Of a stretch of 64,000 nucleotides of DNA, positions 18,365-39,603 are shown in pieces. Origin of the DNA: an uncultured bacterium (GTDB lineage: Bacteria > Patescibacteriota > Patescibacteriia > Magasanikbacterales > GWA2-37-8). The DNA is taken from contig CALCZC010000025.1 of the NCBI GenBank assembly GCA_937903605.1, positions 67,275-131,274 of the forward strand, written 5' to 3'. The translations under genes were made by a program, and so were the position numbers. The number at the start of each line of letters is the position of its first letter. Position 1 is the first letter of the stretch. The notes below the pieces were generated by a model. It saw only the letters and a program-made list of their open reading frames with translations, had not been told where the DNA came from and did no database searches.

Positions 18365-19204
18365 ATGGAGGAAAAAAATAAATTAGTGGTTTTGTTTGAA
18401 GATAATCCAGTACGTCGTTTATGGGATGAAAAAGAGGAGAAGTGGTATTTCAGCGTAGTGGATATTATTCAAATTTTAACTGGTAGTGTAGATGCGCGCG
18501 ATTATTGGTTTAAGATGAAAAAACGTGTTAAAAGTGACGATGGAATTGAGTTGTCGACAATTTGTCGTCAACTGAAATTAACAGCCAAAGATGGTAAAAA
18601 ATACTTGACAGATACGGCCAATATTGAAGGATTATTTCGTATTATTCAATCTGTCCCATCACCCAAAGCCGAACCAATAAAGCTTTGGCTAGCGCGTGTT
18701 GGTTATGAGCGCATGCAAGAAACTGTTGATCCGGAAAAATCTATCAATCGCGGTAGAAAAAATTGGCAAAGAATGGGGCGAAGTCAAAAATGGATTCAAC
18801 AAAGAATGATGGGGCAAGAAATAAGAAATAAATTGACGGATTATTGGAAAGATAATGAAGTAAAAGAAAAAGATGAATATGCGATTTTGACAAATATTAT
18901 TCATCAAGAATGGAGTGATTTGACGGTTAAAGAACACAAAAATTTAAAAGGTTTGAAAGTTCAAAATTTACGTGATCATATGACAGATGCGGAATTGGTT
19001 TTTACCGCATTGGCAGAATTATCCACGCGACAAATAGCTGAAACGATGCGAACCAAAGGTTTGGAAGAAAATAAAATTCCGGCACAAAAAGGCGGACGAA
19101 TTGCCAAAAATGCGCGATTGGAATTGGAAGAAAAAACGGGGAAAAAAGTGGTGACAAAAAACAATTTTCTCAAAAACATAGAAAACAGAAAAAGAATAAA
19201 ATAA
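18365..19204 (+). CDS. DinD / Bro-N-like DNA-damage-inducible family protein
   Basis: The N-terminal …RRLWDEKEEKWYFSVVDIIQILTGSVDARDYW… and C-terminal …GGRIAKNARLELEEKTGKKVV resemble E. coli DinD. Confidence 0.55.
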   Translation: MEEKNKLVVLFEDNPVRRLWDEKEEKWYFSVVDIIQILTGSVDARDYWFKMKKRVKSDDGIELSTICRQLKLTAKDGKKYLTDTANIEGLFRIIQSVPSPKAEPIKLWLARVGYERMQETVDPEKSINRGRKNWQRMGRSQKWIQQRMMGQEIRNKLTDYWKDNEVKEKDEYAILTNIIHQEWSDLTVKEHKNLKGLKVQNLRDHMTDAELVFTALAELSTRQIAETMRTKGLEENKIPAQKGGRIAKNARLELEEKTGKKVVTKNNFLKNIENRKRIK

Positions 19205-19223
19205 AAAAACCAAACAATAATTT

Positions 19224-19258
19224 CAACACTTCAGCCTATAGGTTGAAGTGTTTTTATT
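19224..19258 (+). terminator. family-2 conserved hairpin terminator (AACACTTCAGCC-TATA-GGTTGAAGTGTT + T-run)
   Basis: Palindrome followed by TTTTTATTTT. One of six near-identical copies. Confidence 0.7.
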
Positions 19259-19418
19259 TTCTTTGTTTTAGCAAAAATAAGTTGATTTATTTATTAGTAT
19301 AAATTTTAGTATTGCATTCGTATTATTAGTAAAATTAGTATATTGGTATCAATCAAAAAATTCAGTTGAATTTTTTAGGGAAAGAGAGTAAAATAAAGGC
19401 ATTAGTTGTTATAAAATT

Positions 19419-20402
19419 ATGAAGAAAAAAGTAAAAAACAATCAAGTTATTATTTATCAAGCCAAAAATGGAGCGATTGAGCTTCGGGGTGATAATTCCC
19501 GTGAGACTTTTTGGGCCACACAAGCGCAAATAGCGCGGTTGTTTGATGTTACTCCTCAAAATGTGACATTGCACTTAAATAATATCTATAAAGACAAAGA
19601 GCTTGAAATGTCGACAACTTGTAAGGAATCCTTACAAGTTCAAATCGAAGGGAAAAGAGAAATTAAAAGAACCGTTAAGTTTTATAACCTTGATGCGATT
19701 ATTGCTGTCGGCTATCGTATAAATTCCGTCTTGGGAACAAATTTTCGTATTTGGGCGACAAAGACTCTTCGTGGATATATTATCAACGGTTTTGTTATAA
19801 ATCGTAAACAAATATCGGTTCATTATTCGCAATTTTTGGAAGCTGTAGAAAATATCAAACAAATATTACCTGGAGCCGGAAATATAGATCAAAATAGTGT
19901 TTTGGAATTGATTTCCGCTTTTGCCAATACTTGGTTATCTCTGGAAGCTTATGATAAAGATAAAATGGTCAGCACCGGAAATACCAAAAAATCAGTAGTG
20001 ATAACCGCGGACAAATTAAAAAAAGCGTTGGGTGATTTCAAAAACGAGTTATTGAAGAAAGGCGAAGCAACGGAAATTTTCGGACAAGAAAAACACAGAG
20101 ATGCCGTAGGAAGTATTGTCGGTAATGTGATGCAATCGTTTGGCGGTAAATCGCTTTACGCAACCGTAGAAGAAAAAGCGGCCCATCTTCTTTATTTTTT
20201 GGTTAAAGATCATCCGTTTACAGACGGAAACAAACGAAGCGGTGCTTTCGCTTTTGTTTGGTTTTTGAAAAAAGCCGGTTTGCTTGATTCTTCCAAAATC
20301 ACTCCGCCCGCGCTCACGGCTATAACGCTTTTTATCGCTGAAAGCAATCCAAAACAAAAAGATAAGATGATTAAATTAGTTTTACAATTATTAAAAAAAT
20401 GA
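19419..20402 (+). CDS. RhuM-family N-terminal domain fused to Fic/Doc (death-on-curing) toxin-like domain
   Basis: RhuM-like N-terminus (…FRIWATKTLRGY…). Doc/Fic motif HPFTDGNKRSGA near the C-terminus. Confidence 0.75.
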   Translation: MKKKVKNNQVIIYQAKNGAIELRGDNSRETFWATQAQIARLFDVTPQNVTLHLNNIYKDKELEMSTTCKESLQVQIEGKREIKRTVKFYNLDAIIAVGYRINSVLGTNFRIWATKTLRGYIINGFVINRKQISVHYSQFLEAVENIKQILPGAGNIDQNSVLELISAFANTWLSLEAYDKDKMVSTGNTKKSVVITADKLKKALGDFKNELLKKGEATEIFGQEKHRDAVGSIVGNVMQSFGGKSLYATVEEKAAHLLYFLVKDHPFTDGNKRSGAFAFVWFLKKAGLLDSSKITPPALTAITLFIAESNPKQKDKMIKLVLQLLKK

Positions 20403-20407
20403 TATCC

Positions 20408-20532
20408 TGTGTCATCCTGAACGCAATGAAGGATCTGTAAATAAAACAGGACTTTGAATCAAATAATTTATTTTTTTGCAGACCTGCCTGCCGGCAGGCA
20501 GGTTCTTCGCTTGCGCTCAGAATGACAAATTA
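20408..20532. repeat. composite family-1 nested-hairpin element
   Basis: tGTCATCCtgaacgcaatgaaGGATCtg … ACCTGCCTGCCGGCAGGCAGGT (perfect 22-nt palindrome) … ctcagaATGACAa. Architecture parallels 44064-44176. Confidence 0.65.
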
Positions 20533-20552
20533 TACTAAATTTAGCCAAATTT

Positions 20553-20585
20553 AACACTTCACCCTATAGGTTGAAGTGTTTGTTT
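20553..20585 (+). terminator. family-2 hairpin terminator
   Basis: aacacttcaccctataggttgaagtgtttgtttt. Confidence 0.65.
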
Positions 20586-20742
20586 TATATTGACTTATAA
20601 CCCTGATCGTGTTATATTTTAAATAGGAGACATTCAAAATTTATTAGCGCGAAATGCGCCGTATAATTCTGGTGAAAACCAAGGCAACCGGGGAAATCTG
20701 CCGGAGTGCCGTATGAATTATATCGACTAACCAAAAAGGCAA

Positions 20743-20794
20743 TTGTCATTCCCGTACCCGTCAAGCGAGTATAAACTACAGCGGGAATCCAGTG
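20743..20794. repeat. family-1 palindromic repeat unit
   Basis: ttgtcattcccgtacccgtcaagcgagtataaactacagcgggaatccag. Confidence 0.7.
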
Positions 20795-20912
20795 GTCAAA
20801 GGCGGTTGGGAGATTTCATTCTAAGAGATAGTAATATCTTTTTGATGAAATCTCTTAGCCGCTTTTTTGTTTTTCAAAAAGGTCGAATCCGTAAAAACGG
20901 GAGAAAAACAAA

Positions 20913-21617
20913 ATGACTAATTTTAATTTTTTAACATCAATCTTTATGACACACAAAATACCTGAAGGATTAACCAAATGCAAAGTTTGCGGTTGGTATG
21001 ACGGACAAACGACCAGAGGTCAGTTCAATAACGGCGGGAGTTCCACTGAAAAAATCACCATATCCTGTCTTTGCAAAGGTTTGGTTTGTAAAAAATGCGG
21101 TCAAACCAAAATACCGAGACCTTGTTCCAATTCTTATGATGAAAAATCAAACACATTCGGACATTGGCCGTATTTCATCGGCATGATGACTACCTGTCCG
21201 GATTGCAGAAGGTTGGAAAAGATAATTGAAAAACCTTTTATCGGTTTTATCATTGATTGGAAAAAAATGTATTATGAAATAAATCTGGTCAATCCTACTG
21301 ATAGAAAAATTTCCAGCGTCTTGGCATATACAGGCGCGTTTTGCGGGGATACAGATGGCTTGATAGAGACAAGCAGGGTTACACGAGAAAAAGGGGAGAT
21401 GTTACCAAATTCATCAATTCTTTTGGAAAAAAGCGATGTTGACGGTTTGGAATTCGTGATTTGGTTTCATCTGGACATTTATTTTGAAGGAGAAGAAAAA
21501 CCCCTGAAAGTTTGGTTTAATATACCAAAAAATGGTTGGAATTATAAAGACAATGAAGAAATGCTTCCGGTATTGAATAAAAAAGGGCAAATAATAGAGT
21601 TAAAAGAGAGAAATTGA
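20913..21617 (+). CDS. Cys-rich (multiple CxxC) hypothetical protein
   Basis: N-terminal CKVC…CLCKGLVCKKC…CPDC zinc-binding-like clusters. No recognisable catalytic motif. Confidence 0.4.
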   Translation: MTNFNFLTSIFMTHKIPEGLTKCKVCGWYDGQTTRGQFNNGGSSTEKITISCLCKGLVCKKCGQTKIPRPCSNSYDEKSNTFGHWPYFIGMMTTCPDCRRLEKIIEKPFIGFIIDWKKMYYEINLVNPTDRKISSVLAYTGAFCGDTDGLIETSRVTREKGEMLPNSSILLEKSDVDGLEFVIWFHLDIYFEGEEKPLKVWFNIPKNGWNYKDNEEMLPVLNKKGQIIELKERN

Positions 21618-21655
21618 GATTGTATTTTTCTTCCAAAAATGCTAAACTTTATTCA

Positions 21656-21687
21656 GTGTCATTCCTGCGAAGGCAGGAATCCAGTGG
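21656..21687. repeat. family-1 short unit (gtcattcctgcgaaggcaggaatccagtgg)
   Basis: Same unit as 23710-23741 and (reverse complement) 62491-62522. Confidence 0.7.
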
Positions 21688-21754
21688 TTAATTCGAATTT
21701 CTCGGTTATTCGGGGCATTTGGATATTAATTTGTAGTATTCGGATTATATCTAT

Positions 21755-22342
21755 ATGAAATTAACACCAAAAATATTAAAAGCTATTAATTTTGCTAGCA
21801 AAAAGCATAAAAAGGGGGTTAGAAAAGGGGACAAGGGGTTGCCTTATATTAGCCACTGTTTTGCAACTGCCTGGATCTTGAACAGCTTTACCAAAGATGA
21901 AGATGTGATTGTCGCCGGTTTGCTTCACGATGTTATCGAAGATGTCTTGGGGCCCAAGGGTTACAAAATACTTCAAGAAAAATTCGGTCAGCGCGTGGTT
22001 GATATTGTGAAGGGTGTTACCGAAGACAAAGATCCCAACAAAAAAGAAGATGAAAAGCCATGGATTGAAAGAAAACAAGATTATCTTGATCATCTCAAAA
22101 AAGATAGCAAGGAATCCATGATGGTAAGTACAGCGGATAAAATACACAATTTGCAGTCCATGCGCGATGCTTATCGCGAACAAGGGGAAAAATTATGGAA
22201 GAATTTCAACTCTCCGGCGGATAAAAAGCTTTGGTTTTATGAAGAGGTTTATAAGATAGTAAAGGGAAAATTGAGGAATAAAATTGTAGAAGAGTTAAAT
22301 AAACAAATTAAAGGAGCAAAATATGAATTTCATTTATATTAA
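21755..22342 (+). CDS. HD-domain small (p)ppGpp/alarmone hydrolase-like protein (RelA/SpoT HD-type, paralog 1)
   Basis: …HCFATAWIL…AGLLHDVIEDV… matches the SpoT-type HD motif. 195 aa. About 70% identical to the product of 27353-27931. Confidence 0.75.
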   Translation: MKLTPKILKAINFASKKHKKGVRKGDKGLPYISHCFATAWILNSFTKDEDVIVAGLLHDVIEDVLGPKGYKILQEKFGQRVVDIVKGVTEDKDPNKKEDEKPWIERKQDYLDHLKKDSKESMMVSTADKIHNLQSMRDAYREQGEKLWKNFNSPADKKLWFYEEVYKIVKGKLRNKIVEELNKQIKGAKYEFHLY

Positions 22343-23057
22343 AAAAAGTTCAGCTATTGCCGGAATTATAGCTTTAGCTTTTATTTTTGCCGGAGTCGGT
22401 TATTTTTTCAAAGATAAAATACAAAAACAAAATTTTGATAATTATATTAATGAAAATAATGCAGAAAATTATTTTGAAGTCGTTAAAAAAGCCGACATGT
22501 GTTTGATGATGGAGCCAAAAGATATTGATTGTTTTATTTATAAAGCCAATGCTTTGGCAAAAATGGCTTATATTGACGAGGCTCTGAAAGTGTTAACCGA
22601 TGCAAAAAAATATGTAAATAAATGGTCTGATGAGGGTGAAGATTTAATACACTTATATTATTCTATCAGTGACAGAGGAAAAACGGACAAATGGAATCTA
22701 ATTTTAGATCAAGATATTCAGTGGAAAGGAAAAATTGGTATAGGGTTGGAACAGATTGACGGTATAAAATTTTATTTTATCGGAGATGATGGAAAAACAT
22801 CGCGAACAGCCGGTTGGCAAGATTGGTTTTGGGTTTTACCAACATCGACAGAGGAAATTGTAATAGAGAAAGATGGATGGGTAGAATATATGCTCAAAAG
22901 TTTTGGAAATATTGATATAAATACCGTAGATTTTATTAGTGATACGTTTTTGATAACAGGTAAATATACTAATTTTGATTGTGGTTTCTATGGAGATTAT
23001 ATGTGTGTACCAATAGTTGCTGTTGAGAAAATTGAAAGAATAAAAAATAACAAATAA
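22323..23057 (+). CDS. hypothetical protein with N-terminal TM helix
   Basis: 244-aa ORF overlapping the upstream stop. No motif recognised. Confidence 0.4.
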   Translation: MNFIYIKKSSAIAGIIALAFIFAGVGYFFKDKIQKQNFDNYINENNAENYFEVVKKADMCLMMEPKDIDCFIYKANALAKMAYIDEALKVLTDAKKYVNKWSDEGEDLIHLYYSISDRGKTDKWNLILDQDIQWKGKIGIGLEQIDGIKFYFIGDDGKTSRTAGWQDWFWVLPTSTEEIVIEKDGWVEYMLKSFGNIDINTVDFISDTFLITGKYTNFDCGFYGDYMCVPIVAVEKIERIKNNK

Positions 23058-23059
23058 AT

Positions 23060-23428
23060 ATGAAAATAGTTTATTCAAAATTCATTTCCGGTGCTTCTGC
23101 TTCGCGATTTAAAGTCAAAGGAGATAAAAAAAGTGTAAAAAATTGGAGAAATAATGTGATTGAACAAACCAAAGACGGGATAGGTATTATCAACAAAGAG
23201 TGTAGAATGAAAGTTATCTTTAAATTTCATTCAAGCAGATATCCAACAGATTTTCCATATGGTCCGGATTTAGATAACCACATAAAAAATTTATGGGATG
23301 GGCTTAATGAAACCATTTTTAAAAACGCACCAGGGCATGATAGTTGTGTAAAAATACTTCACGCGAGTAAACATAAAGTTGAAAAAGAAAAAGAAGCCGG
23401 AGTAAAAATAGAAATATCTTATATATAA
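23060..23428 (+). CDS. RusA-like Holliday-junction resolvase (phage-type), tentative
   Basis: About 120 aa with GPDLDNHIKNLWDGLNE, resembling the RusA DxDNxxKxxxDAL motif. Confidence 0.45.
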   Translation: MKIVYSKFISGASASRFKVKGDKKSVKNWRNNVIEQTKDGIGIINKECRMKVIFKFHSSRYPTDFPYGPDLDNHIKNLWDGLNETIFKNAPGHDSCVKILHASKHKVEKEKEAGVKIEISYI

Positions 23429-23473
23429 AATAAGAATATTTTCTATATTATTAAAAGCTAAAATAAGCCGGTT

Positions 23474-23531
23474 TTGTCATCCCCGCGAATCCGCCTTCGC
23501 CAGTTGGCGAATGGCGGAGGGGATCCGGTGG
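23474..23531. repeat. family-1 repeat with nested inner hairpin
   Basis: ttgtcatccccgcgaatccgccttcgccagttggcgaatggcggaggggatccggtgg. Confidence 0.7.
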
Positions 23532-23648
23532 TTAATTTTTGTAATCTTTCAATTTCGTAATTTCGCCTTTTTTTGTATGCTTAGCTTGTCCGGCGTAACT
23601 TTAGTGAAGTCGGATTATATTGTCCGTAAAAATAATATTCTGTATTTC

Positions 23649-23678
23649 AAACACTTCAGCCTAGGTTGAAGTGTTTTA
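23649..23678 (+). terminator. family-2 hairpin terminator
   Basis: aaacacttcagcctaggttgaagtgtttt. It is preceded by a duplicate of the last about 30 nt of the SNase gene's 3' end. Confidence 0.65.
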
Positions 23679-23700
23679 ATTTGCTTTGTTTTAGTAAAAT

Positions 23701-23788
23701 GTAGAACACATTGTCATTCCTGCGAAAGCAGGAATCCAGCGGTCGTCTCAATTTTCCTATATTCCTGCTTTCGCAGGAATTATGTTCT
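23701..23788. repeat. MITE-like family-1 element with terminal inverted repeats (TAGAACACAT … ATGTTCTA)
   Basis: Contains gtcattcctgcgaaagcaggaatccagcgg and a second hairpin attcctgctttcgcaggaat, bounded by imperfect TIRs. Confidence 0.6.
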
Positions 23789-23833
23789 AAATCTTTATTT
23801 GAATTTTATAATCAAAAAGAGTAAAATTCCATC

Positions 23834-24667
23834 ATGAAAAAACTTTATATTTCCATCATATTTCTACTATTTCTATCCGGTTGTACTTCCGAGGTTACGC
23901 AAAATAGTAAAGTAGAAATCAAAACCGAAAATCAAACCGTCACTGCGGTTGTTTCTTCTACCACAAATATAAAAATAAACGATGATTTTGATGATATAAA
24001 AACAGAAATTTTTGTTACTACCAATACCCCTACAAATTCAGAAAAAACTTTTTTGGTGACACGAGTTATTGACGGCGACACTATCGAGATAGAAGGCGGG
24101 CAAAAAGTGCGCTATATCGGTATAGACACTCCGGAAACTGTAGATCCGCGCAAACCCGTGCAATGTTTTGGCAAAGAAGCTTCCGCAAAAAACAAAGAAT
24201 TGGTGGAAGGCAAAAAAGTGCGTTTGGAAAAAGATGTTACAGACACGGATAAATACGGGCGCTTGTTGCGATACGTTTACATCGGCGATATTTTTGTAAA
24301 TCTGGAATTGGTCAAACAAGGTTACGCCTCCTCATATTCTTATCCGCCGGATATCAAATTTCAAAATATATTTTTGCAAGCTCAACAAGAAGCGCAAGCC
24401 AAGGATCTAGGTTTTTGGTCAGCTTGTGAAGAAAATAATATCCCCGAAATATCCACTCCTTCCATAAATACCACAACAAACAACAACAGCCCGACGGATT
24501 GTAAAATAAAAGGAAATATCAGTTCAAAAGAAGAAAAAATTTATCATTCTATAGGGTGTGATAGTTACGATCTTACAAAAATAGATGAGGCTAGGGGAGA
24601 GAGATGGTTTTGCACGGAAGAGGAAGCGGTGAACGCGGGGTGGAGAAAAGCATTAAATTGTCCGTAA
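23834..24667 (+). CDS. secreted/lipoprotein thermonuclease (staphylococcal nuclease, SNase-like)
   Basis: Lipobox LLFLSGCTS. SNase core VTRVIDGDTIEIEGGQKVRYIGIDTPE. Confidence 0.8.
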   Translation: MKKLYISIIFLLFLSGCTSEVTQNSKVEIKTENQTVTAVVSSTTNIKINDDFDDIKTEIFVTTNTPTNSEKTFLVTRVIDGDTIEIEGGQKVRYIGIDTPETVDPRKPVQCFGKEASAKNKELVEGKKVRLEKDVTDTDKYGRLLRYVYIGDIFVNLELVKQGYASSYSYPPDIKFQNIFLQAQQEAQAKDLGFWSACEENNIPEISTPSINTTTNNNSPTDCKIKGNISSKEEKIYHSIGCDSYDLTKIDEARGERWFCTEEEAVNAGWRKALNCP

Positions 24668-24686
24668 AAATAATATTCTGTATTTT

Positions 24687-24717
24687 AAACACTTCACCCT
24701 AGGGTGAAGTGTTTTAA
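24687..24717 (+). terminator. family-2 hairpin terminator (perfect palindrome variant)
   Basis: aaacacttcaccctagggtgaagtgtttt. Confidence 0.7.
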
Positions 24718-24802
24718 TTTTGTTTTATATTAGCAAAAATTTGTTTCTTGAGTTTTTTAGGGAAAAGGAGTAAAATAAATGCATCTTATTTAACAAAAAT
24801 TT

Positions 24803-25465
24803 ATGAAATTAAAGGAGGTTCCCGTCGTCGATAGACCGCGGGAAAAGTTGGAAAAATATGGGGTAAATAGGCTCAGTGACAGCGAGCTTATGGCTATTTT
24901 GATTCGCACCGGGATTGTTGGTAAAAATGTTGTGGAGCTTTCCAAACAAATTTTGAAAAAAATTAAAAAACTCGGTTTGGAAAAAATGGAAATGAAGGAT
25001 TTATTGGAAATAAAAGGTTTGGGAAAAACCAAGGCCGGGCAGATATTGGCAAGCTTGGAAATCGGTCGCCGTTTTCTTCAAAACAAAAAATCCGAATTAA
25101 TACTTTCTCCGCAAGATGTTTGGAACGAAATGAAAGACTTGCGCGACAGTAAAAAAGAACATTTTGTTATTTTTTATCTAGACACGCAAAATCAAATTAT
25201 TAAAAGAGAAATTATTTCCGTCGGCACGTTAAACGAAAGTCTGATTCATCCGCGAGAAGTTTTTGAACCGGCTGTCAGATATTCCACGGCGCAAATAATC
25301 ATGGCGCACAACCATCCGTCCGGGAATTTGGAACCGTCGCCTGAAGATGTCGCAGTTTCAAGACGTTTGATAGACGCCGGAAATTTATTGGGGATTGAAG
25401 TTTTGGATCATATTATCATAACAAAGGACGGTTTTAAAAGCATGAAAGAATTAAAAATGTTATAG
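24803..25465 (+). CDS. radC: RadC-like JAB/MPN domain protein
   Basis: JAMM motif HNHPSGNLEPSPEDV and an N-terminal HhH-like region. Confidence 0.85.
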   Translation: MKLKEVPVVDRPREKLEKYGVNRLSDSELMAILIRTGIVGKNVVELSKQILKKIKKLGLEKMEMKDLLEIKGLGKTKAGQILASLEIGRRFLQNKKSELILSPQDVWNEMKDLRDSKKEHFVIFYLDTQNQIIKREIISVGTLNESLIHPREVFEPAVRYSTAQIIMAHNHPSGNLEPSPEDVAVSRRLIDAGNLLGIEVLDHIIITKDGFKSMKELKML

Positions 25466-25468
25466 GTT

Positions 25469-26089
25469 ATGTCAAATCACTATACAGAAAAATTAAAAGC
25501 GGCTTTAAAAAAACGAGTTTATGTTTACATAGACGCGGCTAATTTGGAACGCTCGGTACAGGATATGTGGGTAAACTCCAAAGATATTCCGGATAATTTA
25601 AAAGAAAATAAAGCGGAAGAGTTGCACTATCGCGTAGATTATCAAAAATTTAAAGCTTATTTTGACAAAATTTCCGATTTAAAAGAAATAAAATTTTATT
25701 CCGCCGATTTTAATAATGAAAAGCACAGTAAGTTTTTATGGTTTTTAAGTAAAATATTAAAATTTAAATTAGGAACAAAACCTTTGAAAGAATATACTGA
25801 CCACACTCCTGAAACTCCGCACCGAAAAGCAAATTTTGACGTAGAACTGGCGGTAGATGCTACTTATCATTTGAATAAATATGACACTTTGGTTTTGTTT
25901 TCAGGAGATTGTGATTTTGAATACCTGATCAAATTTTTGAAGGGTCATGGTAAAGTGGTTATTGTTTTTTCACGGGTCGGACATGTGGCCAAAGAACTTC
26001 CGCCAGCAAGCAGTTATTATTTTGACATAGTGGACTTTAGACAGGAATTGTTAAAAATAGAAACTAAAACGCAAAAAATCCCGCGATAA
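25469..26089 (+). CDS. NYN/LabA-like (PIN-fold) nuclease-domain protein
   Basis: VYVYIDAANL…LVLFSGDCDFEYLIKFLKGHGKVVIV matches the NYN Asp pattern. Starts 4 nt after radC. Confidence 0.7.
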   Translation: MSNHYTEKLKAALKKRVYVYIDAANLERSVQDMWVNSKDIPDNLKENKAEELHYRVDYQKFKAYFDKISDLKEIKFYSADFNNEKHSKFLWFLSKILKFKLGTKPLKEYTDHTPETPHRKANFDVELAVDATYHLNKYDTLVLFSGDCDFEYLIKFLKGHGKVVIVFSRVGHVAKELPPASSYYFDIVDFRQELLKIETKTQKIPR

Positions 26090-26405
26090 AGCGGGATTCT
26101 GCAGTTGATTACAAGTGATACTGCTATCACCTGTAATTCAACTATACATTAATTTTACGATTTTGTCAATGTTATCCACAACGGAAAAAGTACCTAAGAT
26201 TGTTGTAATACTAAATAAACAAAAAACCCAATCGGTTAGATTAGGCGCTTTGTTGAAGTAGCGTCTTAAAAAGTGGTTATCTGCGGCTTAAGTCCCGAGT
26301 TCCTCGGGGGAACACCACAGCGCTCTCTAAGCTATTATTGCATACTTCAAGATTAATATACCACAAAACCCCTTTTTCGCCAATATCAGCTTATCCACAG
26401 GTTTT

Positions 26406-26435
26406 TTGTCATCCTGAACTTGATTCAGGATCTCC
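26406..26435. repeat. family-1 short unit (gtcatcctgaacttgattcaggatctccc)
   Basis: Palindromic ATCCTGAA-cttga-TTCAGGAT core. Confidence 0.6.
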
Positions 26436-26473
26436 CTTTAAGTCTAATTTCGCCTGTTCAAGGCGGATTTTTT

Positions 26474-26506
26474 AACACTTCAGCCTGTAGGTTGAAGTGT
26501 TTTTGT
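26474..26506 (+). terminator. family-2 hairpin (no annotated CDS immediately upstream)
   Basis: aacacttcagcctgtaggttgaagtgtttttgttt. Confidence 0.55.
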
Positions 26507-26795
26507 TTGGGTTGAATTAGCGAAAATTTATTTTTGACAAAATCACCAAAATATACTATACTACTAATAGTTACAATCTAAAATAATTATTTATCAAGAG
26601 CGCAGGTAGTTTCTTCGCCGAGGCGGAGAACTTAGGGATCTAGCCCAAAATCTGCCGGCAACCTCTGTGGCTGACTGCCAAAGAAAGGTGCCAATTCTAG
26701 CCCGAATAGGGAAAGATGATCGTCGATTTTTTGTTTCTTGAGCAAAAAGCATCTTTCCCACCCGGGAAAGATTTTTAATTTTTAATAATGAATAT

Positions 26796-27173
26796 ATGAT
26801 AACTGAAAATTTTAATACTTATACTTTTAAATTTTTATCAGGGGTTAAAAATAAAATGACGGAGTTTACCGAAGAACCGGATCTTATTGTTTATGAATCA
26901 ATAGGATTAGCCACGGCTGGCAGTGTAGAACATGCAATTATTCTTGCTTTACAACATAAAGAAGGTTTTTTAAAAGAGGCAGTAGGGTATAGAGTCAGAG
27001 AAAATAATGATATTATTAAAATTCTCAGCAAAGCCACGGGTAAAGATTATGTCGGAGTGGAGTTTTATAAGTTAAAAAGAAAAAATCAAGAAGAATTAAG
27101 TGGTATAGGTAAGTTTTTTGCGGACAATTTGAACAAGAATGTCCTGGAAGATCAAAAAAAGATGAAAAATTGA
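26796..27173 (+). CDS. hypothetical protein
   Basis: 125-aa ORF. No motif recognised. Confidence 0.35.
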   Translation: MITENFNTYTFKFLSGVKNKMTEFTEEPDLIVYESIGLATAGSVEHAIILALQHKEGFLKEAVGYRVRENNDIIKILSKATGKDYVGVEFYKLKRKNQEELSGIGKFFADNLNKNVLEDQKKMKN

Positions 27174-27352
27174 AGTTTTCTTAAAAAAATGCTAAACTTT
27201 AATGGCAATATTCGTATAAATTTTAGTATAGCACTAGTATAATTAGTATCAATTATTCGTATCTATGAAATTAATATTAAATTAGTATAAATTTTAGTAT
27301 TACATTCGTATCATTAGTACAATTAGTATATTAGTATCAATTATTTGTATCT

Positions 27353-27931
27353 ATGAAACTAACTCCCAAAATACAAAAAGCCATCAATTACGCCAGTCGT
27401 TTGCATGCCAAACAGATAAGAAAAGGGGATAAAGACCTGCCTTATGTCAGCCATTGCTTCACCGCGGCTTGGATTCTCAATGAATTTACCAAAGACGAAG
27501 ATATTATCGTGGCCGGATTGCTTCACGATGTACTGGAAGATGTTCCGGGTTATGGTTACGAAAGGATGAAAAAAGATTTTGGCGCGCGAGTGGCGAAAAT
27601 AGTCGCCGGTGTTACCGAAGATAAAGATCCCAATAAAAAAGAGAAAGAGAAGCCGTGGATTGAAAGAAAACAGAAATATCTCGAGCATCTCAAAAAAGAT
27701 AGCCGGGAATCCATGATGGTAAGCGCAGCGGATAAAATACACAATTTGCAGTCCATGCGCGATGCTTATTGCGAACAAGGGGAGAAATTGTGGAAGCATT
27801 TCAATGCTACAAAAGAGGAATCTCTTTGGTTTTATGAGCAAGTTTATAAGATTATTAGGGGGAAATTGAGGAATAAAATTGTGGGGGAATTGGGGAAACA
27901 ATTGGCAGGGGCAAAAAAGGAATTTAAATAA
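27353..27931 (+). CDS. HD-domain small alarmone hydrolase-like protein (paralog 2)
   Basis: …HCFTAAWILNEFTKDEDIIVAGLLHDVLEDV… matches the SpoT-type HD motif. Paralog of 21755-22342. Confidence 0.75.
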   Translation: MKLTPKIQKAINYASRLHAKQIRKGDKDLPYVSHCFTAAWILNEFTKDEDIIVAGLLHDVLEDVPGYGYERMKKDFGARVAKIVAGVTEDKDPNKKEKEKPWIERKQKYLEHLKKDSRESMMVSAADKIHNLQSMRDAYCEQGEKLWKHFNATKEESLWFYEQVYKIIRGKLRNKIVGELGKQLAGAKKEFK

Positions 27932-27935
27932 TTTT

Positions 27936-27968
27936 TAACACTTCAGCCTGTAGGTTGAAGTGTTTGTT
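27936..27968 (+). terminator. family-2 hairpin terminator
   Basis: aacacttcagcctgtaggttgaagtgtttgtttt. Confidence 0.65.
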
Positions 27969-27986
27969 TTGTGTAATTTTGGCCAT

Positions 27987-28076
27987 TTTGTCATTCCTGT
28001 GGGCCAAAGGCCTCCCTTTGGGAAAGGCAGAGATCTAGGCACTTGTCATCCCCGCGCAGGCGGGGATCCAATGACT
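27987..28076. repeat. two adjacent family-1 units
   Basis: ttgtcattcctgtgggccaaaggcctccctttgggaaaggcagagatctagg + cttGTCATccccgcgcaggcggggatccaATGAC. Confidence 0.7.
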
Positions 28077-28175
28077 AATTTTTCGCAATTTTTCGTATTT
28101 TTATAATTCAAAAATTGGTATTGTAAAAAAGGGGGAAAGAGAGTAAAATATAGACAACTTATTTAATAAAAATTT

Positions 28176-29105
28176 ATGAAAAGTTATTATCGTATAATGC
28201 TTGGCAAGGGTAGTGTTTATGCCAAAGAAGCAAGGTTAGAAAATTTTATGGGCGCCGGATGGCTTGGTGATATTGATTTAACAAATGAATTACCAGAAAG
28301 TCGAGTTGAATTCAATAAGAAATTCATACCTGTTTATTTAAAAAAACATCCTGATGCAAAGAAAATGTCAGCGGCCCTTGCTTGTGGTATGTTATACACG
28401 ATCGCAAAAGGTATTGTTATTGGTGATATTGTTTTATGTCCGGATGGGTCAGGTAATTATTATTTCGGAGAAGTCATTGGTGATTATCAATATGTGTCGG
28501 GAGTAAACTTACCGCACCGTCGTGCTGTGAAATGGTATTCCAAAATTATTCCCAGAGAAGAAATGAGTCAAGCTTTAAAATATTCCACTGGCGCCATTGG
28601 TACAGTTAGCAATATAACCGATCATGCTTCTGAATTAGAAAAATTGATATCAGGTAATGTTGAAAGTCCGATTGTTGTGACCGACGAGTCAATTGAAGAC
28701 CCAAGTGTATTTATGTTAGAGAAACATCTAGAGGATTTTTTGGTACAAAATTGGAACAATACTGAATTGGGTAAGAATTATAATATTTATGAAGAAGATG
28801 GTGAAATAGTGGGGCAACAATATCCTAGCGATACTGGTCCAATAGATATTTTGGCAATTAGTAAAGATAAAAAAACACTTTTGGTAGTTGAGTTAAAAAA
28901 AGGACGCGCAAGTGATGTGGTGGTCGGCCAAATTCAAAGGTACATGGGTTATGTAAAAGACGAATTAGCAGAAAAAAATCAAGAAATTAAAGGGGTTATA
29001 ATTGCTTTTGAAGATGATATTAAAATTCGCCGTGCTTTATCGGTTGCAAATAACATCGATTTTTATACTTATAAAATTGATTTTAAACTTGAAAAAAATA
29101 AATAA
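28176..29105 (+). CDS. YhcG/DUF1016-like PD-(D/E)xK nuclease-domain protein
   Basis: C-terminal …GPIDILAISKDKKTLLVVELKKGRASDVVVGQIQRYMGY… is a D…ExK motif resembling YhcG. It is the first gene of a tightly spaced 15-gene array. Confidence 0.5.
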   Translation: MKSYYRIMLGKGSVYAKEARLENFMGAGWLGDIDLTNELPESRVEFNKKFIPVYLKKHPDAKKMSAALACGMLYTIAKGIVIGDIVLCPDGSGNYYFGEVIGDYQYVSGVNLPHRRAVKWYSKIIPREEMSQALKYSTGAIGTVSNITDHASELEKLISGNVESPIVVTDESIEDPSVFMLEKHLEDFLVQNWNNTELGKNYNIYEEDGEIVGQQYPSDTGPIDILAISKDKKTLLVVELKKGRASDVVVGQIQRYMGYVKDELAEKNQEIKGVIIAFEDDIKIRRALSVANNIDFYTYKIDFKLEKNK

Positions 29106-29107
29106 TT

Positions 29108-30682
29108 ATGACTAATTTTAATACTTCAAAAGAACAAGAACGTGCCGAGCTTCATCGTGCTATTTGGCAAATTGCTAATGATCTAAGGGGAAGTGTAGAT
29201 GGTTGGGATTTCAAACAATATGTTTTGGGAATTTTGTTTTATAGATTTATTGGTGAAAATCTTTCTAATTATATCAATAAACAACAGAGAAAAGTTAAAG
29301 GGTTTGAAAATTTTGAATATTCAAATTTGAGCGATAAAGAAGCAGAATTGGGTAAAAAAGAAATTGTGTTGGCAAAGGGTTTCTATATTCTTCCAAGTGA
29401 GCTTTTTGTAAATGTTCGTAAAAATGCTAAAAACAATGCAAATTTAAACGAAACTCTTTCAAGAGTTTTTAGTAATATTGAAAATTCTGCAAAAGGTTTT
29501 GATAGTGAGGATGATATAAAAGGGTTATTTGCTGACCTTGATGTCAATTCTCCAAAACTTGGAAATACAGTTGAAAAACGTAATCAAAAATTAGTAAAAC
29601 TTTTAGATGCTATTGGAGATCTTCAATTAGGAAATTACTCTGATAATACTATCGATGCTTTCGGTGATGCTTATGAGTTTTTAATGACCATGTATGCTTC
29701 AAATGCTGGTAAATCTGGAGGTGAATTTTATACACCACAAGAAGTTAGTGAATTACTTGCAAAAATTACGACTGTGGGTAAAAAAGAGGTAAACAAAGTT
29801 TATGATCCATGTTGTGGTTCAGGATCGCTTCTTTTGAAATTTGCCAAAGTTCTTGGTAAAGAAAATGTCCGGCTTGGTTTTTTTGGTCAAGAAATAAATC
29901 TTACCACCTATAATTTGTGTCGTATCAACATGTTTTTACACGATATCAACTATAATCATTTTGATATTGAGCTCGGTGACACACTAACTGATCCCAAACA
30001 TTGGGATGACGAACCTTTTGATGCTATAGTTTCTAACCCGCCTTATTCAATTAATTGGGAAGGGGACGCTAATCCGCTTTTAATAAACGACCCTCGTTTT
30101 TCGCCTGCTGGAGTACTTGCTCCAAAGAGTAAAGCTGATTTGGCTTTCACCATGCACATGCTTTCGTGGCTTTCTACCAGCGGAACGGCGGCGATTGTTG
30201 AATTCCCTGGAGTTCTTTATCGTGGTGGAGCTGAAGCAAAAATCCGCAAATATTTGATTGATAACAATTACGTTGATGCTGTAATACAACTTCCACTAGA
30301 TCTTTTCTTTGGTACAACCATTGCTACTTGTGTTATCGTTTTAAAGAAGAGTAAAAAAGACAATAAGACTTTATTTATCGATGCTTCCGCTGAATTTGTT
30401 CGGGGTGGTAATAAAAATAAATTAAACGAAGAAAATCGTAAAAAGATCCTGAATGCTTTTATAGAAAGAAAAGATATAGAACATTTTGCAAAAATTATAG
30501 ATAACAAAGCTATTGCAGAAAATGATTACAATCTAGCAGTTTCTAGTTATGTGGAGCAAAAAGACACTAGAGAAGCAGTGGACATAAAAGAACTTAATAA
30601 AGAAATTGAGAGAATCGTAAAAAGACAAAGTGAATTAAGGTTGGCAATTGATGAGATTGTGAGGGAGATTGAGGGTAATTAA
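29108..30682 (+). CDS. hsdM: Type I restriction-modification system, DNA methyltransferase subunit M
   Basis: N6-adenine MTase motif IV NPPYS, an AdoMet-binding region (DPCCGSGSLL), and an HsdM N-terminal domain. Confidence 0.9.
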   Translation: MTNFNTSKEQERAELHRAIWQIANDLRGSVDGWDFKQYVLGILFYRFIGENLSNYINKQQRKVKGFENFEYSNLSDKEAELGKKEIVLAKGFYILPSELFVNVRKNAKNNANLNETLSRVFSNIENSAKGFDSEDDIKGLFADLDVNSPKLGNTVEKRNQKLVKLLDAIGDLQLGNYSDNTIDAFGDAYEFLMTMYASNAGKSGGEFYTPQEVSELLAKITTVGKKEVNKVYDPCCGSGSLLLKFAKVLGKENVRLGFFGQEINLTTYNLCRINMFLHDINYNHFDIELGDTLTDPKHWDDEPFDAIVSNPPYSINWEGDANPLLINDPRFSPAGVLAPKSKADLAFTMHMLSWLSTSGTAAIVEFPGVLYRGGAEAKIRKYLIDNNYVDAVIQLPLDLFFGTTIATCVIVLKKSKKDNKTLFIDASAEFVRGGNKNKLNEENRKKILNAFIERKDIEHFAKIIDNKAIAENDYNLAVSSYVEQKDTREAVDIKELNKEIERIVKRQSELRLAIDEIVREIEGN

Positions 30683-30688
30683 ATTAAT

Positions 30689-32890
30689 ATGAATAAATTA
30701 AAAGTTAAATTAGAAAATTGTTACGGAATAAAAAAGCTTGAACACGAGTTTGATTTTTCTAATTTTAAAACTTTTGTTATCTATGCACCCAACGGCGTAA
30801 TGAAGACATCATTTGCAAAAACCCTTAGCGATATTGCAAAAGGAGAAAAACCCTGTGATCAAATAGATGATACTTTAACACCAATTTTTAATTTTTTAAT
30901 TGATGATTCTGAAAATCAAATCCAATCAGAAGAAATATGTGTTATAGAGTCATACAACAAAAAAGCGTTTGATTCTGAAGATAAGATTCTTACGCTTCTA
31001 GCAGACGACGAGACCAAAAAGGAATATTTGGCAATATTTAACGAAATTGAATCACTTAAAAAAGCTTCTCTTCCTGGATTAAAAAAAATATCAGGCAGTA
31101 GTAACTACGAATCTGAAATTACAGAAGCATTTTCTAATCTTGATAAGAAAAATATTTTTGAAATTTTTGAGGCCGTTTTAAATGACATTGAAGCATCGAA
31201 AGATTCATTTGAATTTAAATATAACGATGTTTTTGATAAAGGTGGAAAAGTTAAAAAATTTCTGGCAGATAATTTTGCATTATTAAAAGAGTACATTGAA
31301 AAATACAATGATCTGATTAGTAAGTCTACTTTTTTTGCAAAAAATGCCAACCATATTTTTGGAACAACGGAAGCAAAAATTCTTGGTAAGTCGCTTGAGG
31401 GCGATGAATATTTTACTGCTGGGCATAAATTAGTATTAAAATCACATGGGGATGTATCTGCTAAAAATAAATTATCAGAAATAATTGATGAGGAAATTGA
31501 AAAAGTTTTTAATGATAAAGACCTGAAAGATATTTTTGAAAAAATCGATAATTTGCTCAATACTAATAAAGAACTTCAAGCATTTAAGAAGATTATTGAA
31601 AGAGACAATTCAATTTTATTGAGATTAAATAATTACGATGCTTTTAGAAGAGAGGTGTGGTTTAGTTTTTTAAAACAAATTGAGACAAGCATAAAATCAT
31701 TAGTTGAATTATATAATCAGAAAAAGGTTGATTTAGAAAGGATTATACAAAAAGCAAAGGACAGTCAGTCACAATGGGAAAGTGCTATTAAAGAATTTGA
31801 AAACAGATTTGTTAATAATCCATTTACTCTTGAAATTCAAAATAAGGCGGACGCTGTATTAAACGAAAAGACACCAGTAATTGATTTTAAATTTCAAGGA
31901 AAAGATATCGAAAGAAACAATTTGATAGAAAATGTATTGAGCCAAGGAGAGAGACGAGCTTTTTATATTTTAAATGTTATTTTTGAGATTAAATCTCGGC
32001 AGCTACAAAACAAAAAAACATTATTTATTATTGATGACATAGCGGACTCGTTTGATTACAAAAATAAATATGCAATTATTGAATATTTAAATGATTTATC
32101 CAAAGAAGATAATTTCTATTCAATAATTTTAACGCACAACTTTGACTTTTTTAGGACACTTCAATCAAGAATCTTGCAAGATAATAAGTGGAACTATTCT
32201 TTTATAGCAGAAAAACTAACAGATGAAATTAAACTAATTAAAGCAGGTAGTAAAAATGTTACTGACCCATTTACTAACTGGAAAGCAGGTCTTAATAACA
32301 ACAAAAAACATTTAATTGCTTGTATTCCTTTTGTGCGAAATTTGATTGAATTTAAAGATGGACGAAATGATGGATATAAGCTTCTAACGCACACTCTTCA
32401 TAGAAAATCTTTGGACGAAACTATTAAAGCAACCCCAGATATTTCAATTGCTGATCTACAAGCACCGTTTTCGAGTGTTGTGTCTGGTGTTGCATTTACA
32501 TTTACAGACACAAATGAAAAAATTATTGATGTAATTGAGGAACAGATAGCAGTGATAAAAAATGACAGAAATACCGATTCAATTGTTCTAGAAGATAAAA
32601 TTATTTTTGCTATTGGAATAAGATTGAAAGCAGAAGAATATATGTGGTCGAAGGTTACAAACCAAGATCTAATAAACGGATCGCAAACAGGTAAGCTGTT
32701 TCAGCGATACAAAGATCAATTTAAACAAGATCCGACTCATGTTGAAGCTATAAAAATCTTAGAAAGCGTAAATATAATGACTCCTGAGAACATACACCTG
32801 AACTCTTTTATGTATGAACCAATTTTAGATATAGGCATAGATGAGTTAAAGAGTTTACACGATAAGGTTTGCAATTTAATGAATAATTAG
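30689..32890 (+). CDS. ABC-type (Rad50/SMC-like) ATPase with ~400-aa helical insertion and C-terminal R-x3-E…H module; RloC-like anticodon-nuclease candidate
   Basis: Degenerate Walker A APNGVMKTS. ABC signature LSQGERRAF, Walker B LFIIDDIADSFD and H-loop ILTHNFDFF about 400 aa downstream. C-terminal GIRLKAEEY…(39 aa)…H. Lies between hsdM and hsdS. Confidence 0.5.
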   Translation: MNKLKVKLENCYGIKKLEHEFDFSNFKTFVIYAPNGVMKTSFAKTLSDIAKGEKPCDQIDDTLTPIFNFLIDDSENQIQSEEICVIESYNKKAFDSEDKILTLLADDETKKEYLAIFNEIESLKKASLPGLKKISGSSNYESEITEAFSNLDKKNIFEIFEAVLNDIEASKDSFEFKYNDVFDKGGKVKKFLADNFALLKEYIEKYNDLISKSTFFAKNANHIFGTTEAKILGKSLEGDEYFTAGHKLVLKSHGDVSAKNKLSEIIDEEIEKVFNDKDLKDIFEKIDNLLNTNKELQAFKKIIERDNSILLRLNNYDAFRREVWFSFLKQIETSIKSLVELYNQKKVDLERIIQKAKDSQSQWESAIKEFENRFVNNPFTLEIQNKADAVLNEKTPVIDFKFQGKDIERNNLIENVLSQGERRAFYILNVIFEIKSRQLQNKKTLFIIDDIADSFDYKNKYAIIEYLNDLSKEDNFYSIILTHNFDFFRTLQSRILQDNKWNYSFIAEKLTDEIKLIKAGSKNVTDPFTNWKAGLNNNKKHLIACIPFVRNLIEFKDGRNDGYKLLTHTLHRKSLDETIKATPDISIADLQAPFSSVVSGVAFTFTDTNEKIIDVIEEQIAVIKNDRNTDSIVLEDKIIFAIGIRLKAEEYMWSKVTNQDLINGSQTGKLFQRYKDQFKQDPTHVEAIKILESVNIMTPENIHLNSFMYEPILDIGIDELKSLHDKVCNLMNN

Positions 32891-32891
32891 T

Positions 32892-34010: not shown

Positions 34011-34011
34011 T

Positions 34012-35166: not shown

Positions 35167-35169
35167 ATT

Positions 35170-38226: not shown

Positions 38227-38232
38227 GTTTGT

Positions 38233-38946: not shown

Positions 38947-38953
38947 TAAAAAT

Positions 38954-39592: not shown

Positions 39593-39603
39593 TTTAAATA
39601 AAT

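Follow-up and report, generated by a model that had tools for sequence, protein, structure and literature searches.

An ultra-small bacterium of the Patescibacteria carries, in an island of defence genes, two stand-alone small alarmone hydrolase (SAH) genes, HD1 and HD2, which lie within a 64,000-nucleotide stretch of DNA referred to here as the window (all features described lie on its plus strand unless stated otherwise). The enzymes are of a known kind, and it is their accessory modules and context that are new: a β-sandwich domain, here called X, and a SAM riboswitch are previously undescribed SAH partners. With a probability of about 0.5, HD1 and HD2 are active SAHs belonging to accessory modules of Patescibacteria restriction-modification (RM) and defence islands, in which they would tune an alarmone-type signal.

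Two RelH-type hydrolases and the search for a synthetase

HD1 (21755..22342, 195 aa) and its paralogue HD2 (27353..27931, 192 aa) were both identified as SAHs of the RelH/Mesh1-L type, the former from HD_4 and RelH matches and from in-frame codon usage, which marked it as coding, and the latter from HD_4, its identity to HD1 and dN/dS. Each matched Pfam HD_4 (PF13328; 74.9 bits for HD1, 77.2 bits for HD2) and no other domain, and thus consists of a single hydrolase domain of the approximately 180-200 aa class, lacking synthetase, TGS or ACT domains. A previous sequence-only reading of this DNA had described two paralogous open reading frames that were about 70% identical; the coordinates were right, and the identity was found to be 75% over 192 aa (71-80% at the DNA level in a repeat/duplication comparison of the window), with a dN/dS of 0.145 indicating purifying selection. 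A recombinant form was observed in a sister strain. The best PDB matches, aligned over the full length, were RelHCg (7QOC, E = 2.7e-37) and RelHLl (7QOE, E = 2.5e-33), at only about 40% identity, and long Rel/SpoT proteins, Mesh1 and (p)ppApp hydrolase scored far below these. Careful alignment confirmed conservation of the HD dyad, as had been proposed, together with the other catalytic residues: H34, H58-D59, E62-D63, D128 and N132 were present in both proteins and were invariant or nearly so among 16 relatives. The Mn ligands of RelHCg are H34, H58, D59 and D122 (PMC9293644). By homology, HD1 and HD2 are predicted to be Mn2+-dependent and to remove the 3'-pyrophosphate from (pp)pGpp, with (pp)pApp probably a further substrate; by analogy with Mesh1 and XccSAH (PMC9765508), their substrates could include NADPH.

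A Pfam search of all open reading frames in the 15.6-54.3 kb region that encode 90 aa or more revealed no RelA/SpoT synthetase domain (PF04607), in agreement with the earlier description of stand-alone SpoT-type hydrolases without an adjoining synthetase, for which RelHCg and RelHLl are the closest solved structures. A toxSAS-SAH module was rejected, as no synthetase toxin adjoining the hydrolase genes was found among the open reading frames searched and the protein encoded at 20913 models as a β-sandwich. A phage-encoded SAH was likewise rejected, the best phage/IMG/VR relatives being at most 43% identical and the locus being devoid of phage structural genes. It is possible, if unlikely, that HD1 and HD2 are orphan type-IV antitoxins or immunity enzymes directed against a toxSAS elsewhere in the genome, a phage-borne toxSAS or injected effectors that make (p)ppApp, in which case the genes beside them would be incidental. 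Every toxSAS that has been tested is neutralised by SAHs, with no need for direct contact, and SAHs are frequent in prophage-like regions (PMC7229694). The island holds both prophage-like genes (Bro-N, RhuM and RusA) and many defence genes, and an orphan SAH shields Xanthomonas from killing by Pseudomonas (PMC9765508). The known SAH antitoxin, however, belongs to the PbcSpo subgroup and not to Mesh1-L/RelH (PMC7229694, PMC5954133), no synthetase domain was found in the 39 kb around HD1 and HD2, and the recurrent X fusions and the SAM-riboswitch link described below would be left unexplained.

Domain X and the HD1 unit

The product of the HD1 partner gene (20913..21617) is 234 aa long; its N-terminal region is Cys-rich and zinc-ribbon-like, and its C-terminal part forms domain X (residues 104-234, approximately). 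The protein had no match in Pfam, NCBIfam or PADLOC. In its AF2 model, residues 105-234 were predicted with a pLDDT of about 97 as an all-β structure (β-sandwich), for which Foldseek returned only generic Ig/C2-like folds, with no enzyme-like fold and no specific match to a nucleotide-binding domain. X is a new and widespread β-sandwich domain without a Pfam family and is repeatedly fused to SAH. Of 78 representative clusters with X, 8 were fusions to HD_4, which were seen in both domain orders (HD-X in P0125, P0132, P0137, P0139, P0142 and P0247; X-HD in P0131 and P0227), while SAH fusions were present at four of nine metagenome X loci. The order in P0131 is that of the 20913-HD1 gene pair, with 47% identity in X and 41% in the HD part, and the HD part of P0142 was 58% identical to HD1. 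As the 20913-HD1 pair represents a split form of the X-SAH fusions, X most likely serves the hydrolase as a subunit for regulation, ligand binding or targeting, rather than being a toxin enzyme; that it binds a ligand is pure conjecture. In P0133, P0195 and P0145, X was found joined to multi-pass membrane segments and, in P0130/L157, to a protein designated Y, which is considered below together with the riboswitch.

A promoter-like stretch common to both HD genes (TTGTAT-17-TGcTAAACT, 21619..21651, 88% identical to 27169-27201) lies upstream of HD1; as it fell below the cut-off of a simple promoter scan, its promoter role is putative. The HD1 leader contains a REP-like hairpin (GTCATTCCTGCGAAGGCAGGAATCC, 21654..21701) of repeat family D7, other copies of which start at 20745, 23713, 28045, 44066 and 44129 (minus strand). 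The open reading frame following HD1 (22323..23057) overlaps its 3' end by 20 nt, consistent with an operon, and encodes a 244-aa protein with an N-terminal hydrophobic segment that is probably transmembrane. No relatives of this protein were detected in Pfam and PDB searches, and it was not kept beside SAH in the neighbourhoods of other genomes. The last gene of the unit (23060..23428) encodes a RusA-like protein of 122 aa (Pfam RusA, 26.6 bits; PHROG 140), and the unit ends at a terminator hairpin (23649..23676) which, by repeat comparison and terminator scan, is one of six near-identical copies.

The SAM-I riboswitch and the HD2 unit

The unit containing HD2 starts with a near-consensus promoter (TTGACA-17-TATACT, 26534..26562, 11/12 matches) followed by the aptamer of a SAM-I (S-box) riboswitch (26588..26722), the P2/P3 region of which is enlarged. 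The element scored 38.8 bits against RF00162, under the gathering score of 44.4, with E = 6.8e-7 on 1.4 kb, and its core strings UUAUCAAGAG, GGCAACC, AAGGUGCCAAUUC and GAAAGAU align to the model. A terminator with a T-run was found by terminator scan at 26751..26772, and its 5' arm can pair alternatively with 26712-26720 to form an antiterminator. The two structures are mutually exclusive, GGGAAAGAU being present at both 26712-26720 and 26764-26772, and the minimum-free-energy fold of the expression platform was the antiterminator helix with 26712-26720. Two other genomes likewise have a SAM riboswitch adjoining a close SAH relative; it would control a Y protein there, the gene order being riboswitch, Y, SAH in L005 and SAH, riboswitch, Y in L092. 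The orthologous riboswitch in L005 also has an enlarged P2/P3 region and, at 40.2 bits, is under the Rfam threshold, while that of L092 reached 63.3 bits and is above the gathering score. Compensatory changes were observed in 11 of 45 pairs among the window, L005 and L092 elements, the statistics being weak with three sequences. Approximately 230 kb of sequence from further SAH and X loci yielded no SAM riboswitch, and the riboswitch-SAH link comprises these three instances only.

The first gene past the riboswitch (26796..27173) encodes an ORFan of 125 aa and occupies the same position as the Y protein gene in L005. Its sole match among 5.8 billion proteins was itself, yet the gene carries a strong in-frame codon-usage signal; no significant similarity to the proteins designated X, Y or Z was detected, and its AF2 model (pLDDT 43) was unusable. 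The products of 20913, 22323 and 26796 had been suggested as places in which a synthetase or other toxin fold might be hidden. As far as they were testable, with the model of 26796 of no use in this respect, none was synthetase- or toxin-like. The promoter-like stretch of the HD genes recurs here (TTGAAG-17-TGcTAAACT, 27169..27201), the putative promoters of both HD1 and HD2 being weak consensus matches, and the unit is closed by a terminator hairpin (27937..27964) identified by repeat comparison and terminator scan.

The sequence-only reading had further linked the two genes through an AT-rich element of about 60 nt, copies of which were said to precede each of them. The element is real, but of the two HD genes only HD2 is directly preceded by it. 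Immediately before HD2, the GTAT-hexamer array is present in two tandem copies (27210-27270 and 27281-27341, together 27210..27341), which belong to an 88-nt tandem duplication in which the start codon was copied too. A further 61-nt array (19293..19353), found by repeat comparison and promoter scan to abut the -35 box of the RhuM/Fic promoter, is 93% identical to 27281-27341 and 70% identical to 27210-27270; it is located directly upstream of the promoter of RhuM/Fic (19419) and is separated from HD1 by 2.4 kb and two genes. The 5' region of HD1 holds the REP-like hairpin and only one TAGTAT unit, and the upstream sequence that the two HD genes have in common is the 33-nt promoter-like stretch, not the GTAT array. 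The window contains six GTAT-hexamer clusters, whereas shuffled sequence would give 0.6. Arrays of a similar kind lie on either side of an unrelated glycosyltransferase gene (61.57-62.39 kb), and a related strain has this 61-nt array upstream of RadC. The repeat is neither HD-specific nor present as an array at HD1. The earlier view was supported for stand-alone hydrolases without a synthetase but not for a shared repeat connecting them. That view did not include the X-SAH fusions, the SAM riboswitch before 26796 and HD2, or the association with RM genes.

RM context, proposed role and known systems

RM genes adjoined eight of nine sampled contexts of the SAH clade with at least 57% identity, a small sample chosen by length of assembled sequence. 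More distant stand-alone SAH loci were RM-adjacent in only 2 of 26 cases (Fisher p = 5e-5 for 7/8 versus 2/26, with detection methods that differed between the close-clade and distant groups). The flanking core genes differed in every genome while the RM adjacency stayed, indicating that the SAH moves with islands. This argues against a housekeeping (pp)pGpp hydrolase that replaces SpoT in a reduced genome and merely sits in a variable region, X then being a regulatory domain like the C-terminal domains of long RSH proteins and the RM adjacency a product of insertion hot spots. Two diverged paralogues in one island, the recombinant form in the sister strain and variable unannotated partners, which are typical of accessory gene pools, also speak against it. 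Although RelHCg belongs to normal (pp)pGpp metabolism (PMC5954133), distant SAH relatives have conserved, housekeeping-looking neighbours, the HD-X gene of L159 comes after NUDIX and ITPase genes, and HIT and NUDIX genes border the window island, such an explanation is rather improbable, and the role of the SAHs in the island is probably not plain housekeeping.

In the accessory-module reading, each SAH would be the conserved hydrolase of a small module that travels in Patescibacteria RM/defence islands with no toxSAS adjoining. The first module would comprise the zinc-ribbon and β-sandwich X protein (20913), HD1 and two further genes, and the second a strong promoter, a SAM-I OFF riboswitch, the small 26796 protein and HD2. 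HD2 would be kept at a basal level at all times by its own weak promoter, whereas low SAM would allow the 26796 protein to be made, with extra HD2 arising by read-through. The likely role would be to end or tune an alarmone-type nucleotide signal during conflict or stress tied to SAM supply and RM. It is a long shot that the SAH is the eraser of an unrecognised Patescibacteria nucleotide-signalling or toxin-antidote system guarding RM, with Y or the ORFan as writer or effector and X as reader. A drop in SAM, for example through a phage that evades RM by destroying SAM, would then de-repress Y or the 26796 ORFan, X would read the resulting product, and constitutive SAH would reset the system, the two paralogues in the window representing variant modules of one such system; a reader function would explain why X is fused to SAH (the eraser), to Y or to membrane effectors. 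A mainly non-alarmone substrate, such as NADPH converted to NADH as by Mesh1 for cofactor tuning when SAM or methionine is short, is very improbable: Mesh1 and XccSAH do hydrolyse NADPH (PMC9765508) and no synthetase was found nearby, but the closest similarity is to RelH enzymes, whose (pp)pGpp hydrolysis has been demonstrated (PMC5954133), and the context holds nothing pointing to NADP metabolism.

The field has yet to settle the regulation of SAHs and the purpose of orphan SAHs (PMC9293644; PMC9765508). Testable handles are provided by the X-SAH fusions, the small proteins under predicted SAM-riboswitch control beside SAH and the strong RM association of this SAH clade in the candidate phyla radiation. 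If the SAM/RM link is functional, alarmone turnover would be tied to methyl-donor supply and phage defence, and the riboswitch would join the sensors wired into defence islands.

Among known systems, the RelH enzymes of C. glutamicum and L. levettii (RelHCg, 7QOC/7QOD; RelHLl, 7QOE) are likewise single HD_4 proteins of about 190 aa; they align with HD1 and HD2 from end to end and have the Mn2+ ligands, the ED motif and the D..N motif in common with them (PMC9293644, PMC5954133). In contrast to RelH, HD1 and HD2 are duplicated, located in a defence/RM island and coupled to a β-sandwich partner and a SAM riboswitch, none of which was found in the RelH studies examined (PMC9293644, PMC5954133). 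XccSAH of Xanthomonas campestris similarly lacks a cognate toxic synthetase and has a proposed role in stress tuning and interbacterial conflict; it is a single-copy chromosomal gene, and neither a riboswitch nor a domain of a fused or accessory kind is mentioned for it in the abstract (PMC9765508). The toxSAS-SAH pair FaRel/ATfaRel resembles the present genes in having a stand-alone SAH in a small operon within a mobile or defence-type region, and shows that an SAH can serve as a product-degrading antidote (PMC7229694). Unlike in that pair, where ATfaRel is a PbcSpo-type SAH, no synthetase adjoins HD1 or HD2, and neither sequence nor, for X, structure revealed any relation of X, Y, Z or the ORFan to RSH synthetases. 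The CBASS effector Cap15 consists of two TM helices and a small β-barrel, a second-messenger receptor domain placed on a membrane effector. X is likewise small and all-β and is found fused to membrane segments as well as to a signal-degrading enzyme, but had no specific Foldseek match to nucleotide-binding domains. SAM-I riboswitches (RF00162) share with the window element, for which SAM binding is predicted, a conserved aptamer core followed by a mutually exclusive terminator and antiterminator. S-boxes usually control genes for methionine or SAM synthesis or transport, whereas those described here would control small proteins beside an alarmone hydrolase and RM genes.

Two RelH-type hydrolases and the partner of HD1

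The two open reading frames that a sequence-only reading had described as paralogous SpoT-type hydrolases, HD1 (21755-22342; 195 aa) and HD2 (27353-27931; 192 aa), were confirmed, with coding in the annotated frames backed by codon usage. Their products shared 75% identity across 192 aa (E = 9e-109), matched the Pfam family HD_4 with 74.9 and 77.2 bits, respectively, as well as the general HD family, and were aligned by the NCBIfam spoT_relA model over its N-terminal hydrolase part alone. As dN/dS between the two genes was 0.145 and dS about 1.2, the duplication is old, with purifying selection on both copies. ENA metagenome contigs of up to 348 kb contained exact copies. Named relatives were labelled 'Patescibacteria group', Pacebacteria and Uhrbacteria, the host being itself a Patescibacteria/CPR bacterium; a phage origin of these small alarmone hydrolases (SAHs) was rejected. 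The closest solved structures, aligned end to end, were 7QOC/7QOD (E = 2.7e-37) and 7QOE (E = 2.5e-33), which represent the RelH SAHs of Corynebacterium glutamicum and Leptospira levettii, with Mn2+ ligands H34, H58, D59 and D122 (PMC9293644). RelHCg, a member of the Mesh1-L subgroup, hydrolyses (pp)pGpp (PMC5954133). In the same PDB sequence comparison, far lower scores were obtained for long Rel/SpoT, Mesh1 and a (p)ppApp hydrolase than for RelH. A loss of the catalytic His/Asp residues was looked for by aligning 16 members of the family; H34, H58, D59, E62, D128 and N132 were invariant and D63 nearly so. The residues were kept, and the claim of a conserved HD motif therefore stands. By sequence, HD1 and HD2 are very probably bona fide RelH-type SAHs.

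The gene upstream of HD1 (20913-21617) encodes a 234-aa protein without a family match, residues 105-234 of which, here termed domain X, were modelled by AF2 (43-sequence alignment) as an all-beta sandwich with a pLDDT of ~97. Foldseek searches with this model returned only generic likeness to Ig, C2, CsgC and Kir cytoplasmic domains (E at least 3e-3), and comparison of the X profile with PDB sequences gave only noise (MeCP2, E = 0.35). X is thus a new, non-enzymatic-looking domain and has neither a synthetase fold nor a known toxin fold. Few homologues of the 20913 protein were found in the word-indexed database, among them P0125, in which HD_4 is joined to the same C-terminal domain. In a full HMMER scan against 1.84 billion representative sequences, the best 150 matches included 78 X-bearing clusters. 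HD_4 fusions made up 8 of the 78 and occurred in both orders, HD-X in P0125, P0132, P0137, P0139, P0142 and P0247, and X-HD in P0131 and P0227. The order in P0131 is that of the gene pair in the window (X 47% and HD 41% identical), and the HD half of P0142 was 58% identical to HD1. HD-X fusions were also present at 4/9 metagenome X loci, with a frameshifted HD_4 gene directly upstream of X at one more. Through these independent fusions, X is probably functionally tied to SAHs. The domain was further found in four other settings: on its own, behind multi-pass membrane segments, ahead of a membrane region at the C terminus and, exclusively in the lineage of the window, behind a Cys-rich zinc-ribbon-like region. 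A C-terminal CxxC...CxxC zinc-ribbon extension was carried by P0041 (255 aa), a close SAH relative; such a region therefore sits on the SAH in P0041 and on X in the window, a further domain-shuffling link.

A predicted riboswitch unit upstream of HD2

Upstream of HD2, a near-consensus promoter (26534-26562), a SAM-I aptamer (26588-26722) and a terminator (26751-26772) precede a 125-aa ORF (26796-27173). Against RF00162 the aptamer scored 38.8 bits, short of the gathering score (44.4), with a local E of 6.8e-7. The 5' arm of the terminator can pair instead with 26712-26720, and this alternative pairing was displayed by the minimum-free-energy fold. The predicted promoter-aptamer-terminator layout is that of the classical S-box OFF design. 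As the terminator scan placed no terminator between the 125-aa ORF and HD2, read-through would raise HD2 expression too. The 125-aa protein is an ORFan, yet with strong coding statistics. Its match to designer PPR proteins in the PDB (E = 3e-13), with zero passing stretches, was treated as a repeat-summation artefact, and its single-sequence AF2 model (pLDDT 43) was discarded. Profile comparisons of the ORFan with X and with Y, a partner protein of SAH relatives elsewhere, were negative, and the Y profile gave only noise against PDB sequences (E = 0.037). SAM riboswitches and Y or ORFan genes are linked to SAHs by repeated adjacency, the order being riboswitch, Y, SAH at locus L005 and SAH, riboswitch, Y at L092.

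Other small RNA units lie close by. With a promoter-like site (26383-26355) and a terminator (26246-26226) of its own, a DUF3800-V RNA (26254-26349, minus strand; 72.9 bits) lies in the interval that separates the NYN gene from the riboswitch unit. Locus L167 carries a DUF3800-IX RNA (5285-5353, minus strand) near an HD-X fusion and a type I restriction-modification (RM) operon; being present in both the window and L167, DUF3800-type RNAs recur in these islands. Also on the minus strand, a promoter matching 11/12 of the consensus (26169-26141) and a terminator (26100-26075) would yield an antisense RNA of ~60 nt opposite the 3' end of NYN; only insignificant Rfam matches were obtained for it.

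Repeats and cassettes

The AT-rich repeat that the sequence-only reading had placed ahead of each hydrolase gene is real and precedes HD2, but HD1 has no such array, its leader containing a REP-like hairpin instead, and the 19293 copy lies elsewhere, abutting the -35 box of the RhuM/Fic promoter. The copies at 19293-19353 and 27281-27341 were 93% identical, and that at 27210-27270 70% identical, each element being a series of five or six T(A/C/G)GTAT hexamers with a spacing of 8-13 nt; six hexamer clusters were found in the window against 0.6 expected. An identical array precedes RadC in a sister strain. Further GTAT/CGTAT hexamer arrays (61570-61598, 61623-61647 in reverse, and 62361-62389) flank a family-2 glycosyltransferase gene (61.57-62.39 kb), those upstream of it forming an inverted pair around a promoter-like site that looks like an operator pair for some regulator. 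With arrays at RhuM/Fic, glycosyltransferase and RadC genes and none at HD1, an HD-specific element was rejected, and the arrays may be generic protein-binding or promoter-proximal modules of the lineage. Common to the upstream regions of HD1 and HD2 is another element, a promoter-like stretch of 33 nt that has an extended -10 (TGcTAAACT) and is placed immediately behind the preceding gene's stop codon. Both arrays before HD2 belong to an 88-nt tandem duplication that includes the start codon; this duplication of the HD2 5' end (27242-27274, 27330-27362) also creates an upstream mini-ORF, MKLILN*, whose start context is the same as that of HD2. GC-rich REP/MITE-like hairpins (GTCATTCCTGCGAAGGCAGGAATCC and longer variants) occupy intergenic positions of the island at 20745, 21658, 23713, 28045, 44066 and 44129 (minus strand), one pair forming a perfect 20-nt inverted repeat (23716-23780).

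The region 18303-28149 (18.3-28.2 kb) is a cassette-like array of seven transcription units, bounded by a 28-nt terminator hairpin in six near-identical copies (AACACTTCAGCC..GGTTGAAGTGTT) and by a promoter in five such copies (TTGAAT-17-GAGTAAAAT), all absent from the rest of the 64 kb. Cassette and gene order differ in the sister strain, which suggests shuffling by recombination between the terminator and promoter repeats. Its single SAH, P0002, present on four contigs from three sources (L163-L166), is HD1-like over residues 1-~98 and HD2-like from ~120 onward, and the switch zone is the stretch of lowest HD1-HD2 synonymous divergence. This points to P0002 being a product of recombination between the paralogues.

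Genomic context and interpretation

The sequence-only reading had also seen no obvious synthetase partner adjacent to the genes, and this was borne out by Pfam searches of ORFs of at least 90 aa between 15.6 and 54.3 kb, in which no RelA_SpoT synthetase was matched. Families found there were GIY-YIG, Bro-N, RhuM/Fic, RusA-like, SNase, RadC, NYN, NucS/YhcG-type nuclease, AbiU2, ADP-ribosylglycohydrolase, PD-(D/E)XK, HIT and NUDIX, together with a type I RM operon in which SMC/AAA_13 genes are embedded. The neighbouring 20913, 22323 and 26796 proteins, which that reading had singled out for a check for synthetase or toxin folds, and the partner proteins Y and Z of SAH relatives had no match in Pfam (also at E up to 10), NCBIfam, PADLOC or PHROGs. 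A PDB sequence search with the 22323 protein (244 aa) was empty, and profile comparisons of this protein and of Z with X were negative. The window thus contains two functional-looking RelH-type SAH paralogues with no adjacent synthetase. The PADLOC candidate defence families PDC-S02, S13 and S23 were matched by several neighbours, not by the SAHs. Downstream of HD2 lies a dense defence cluster (28176-41745) with a PDC-S02 NucS/YhcG-type nuclease and the type I RM operon. Here the HsdM, HsdS, HsdR operon is interrupted by genes for an SMC-like protein (733 aa) and an AAA_13 protein (384 aa); AbiU2 (HEPN) and PD-(D/E)XK nuclease genes are also present, and the start of the ADP-ribosylglycohydrolase gene overlaps the end of a 191-aa gene without assigned function.

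Nine contexts were sampled for SAHs with 57% or more identity to HD1, and in eight of them an RM system was located within a few genes: type I RM in the window, SNF2/PLD with an Eco57I-type enzyme (L004), type III RM with Pycsar (L006), type I RM with Thoeris (L008), type III RM with SLFN (L090), DpnII (L092), type III RM (L159) and type I RM with Fic, Abi_C and KAP (L167). Only L094 had no adjacent RM. When 26 more distant stand-alone SAH loci of GTDB representatives were compared with a small RM panel by BLAST, RM-like genes turned up within 6 kb at only two. The SAH clade is enriched next to RM (7/8 versus 2/26; Fisher p = 5e-5, from a small sample with detection methods differing between the groups). 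Core genes on the side away from RM differed in every context.

As a whole, the favoured reading, with a probability of roughly one half, is an accessory module that degrades alarmones in connection with conflict or stress. In such a module the SAHs would hydrolyse alarmones, X may modulate or target them, and low SAM would, through the riboswitch, lead to production of the small partner and of additional SAH. An orphan antitoxin or immunity enzyme appears unlikely, as does a housekeeping substitute for SpoT. A more elaborate system of writer (Y/ORFan), reader (X) and eraser (SAH), reporting SAM loss and backing up RM, is improbable, and an NADPH phosphatase is very improbable.

In the literature and libraries searched, no description was found of domain X and its fusions, of SAM-riboswitch control of SAH-adjacent genes, or of an RM association of SAHs in Patescibacteria; literature searches for alarmones in Patescibacteria/CPR and for SAM riboswitches tied to RM and phage likewise found nothing. 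Both orphan SAHs and SAHs located in prophage-like regions have been described before (PMC7229694, PMC9765508), and HD1 and HD2 add new members to a subgroup already known.
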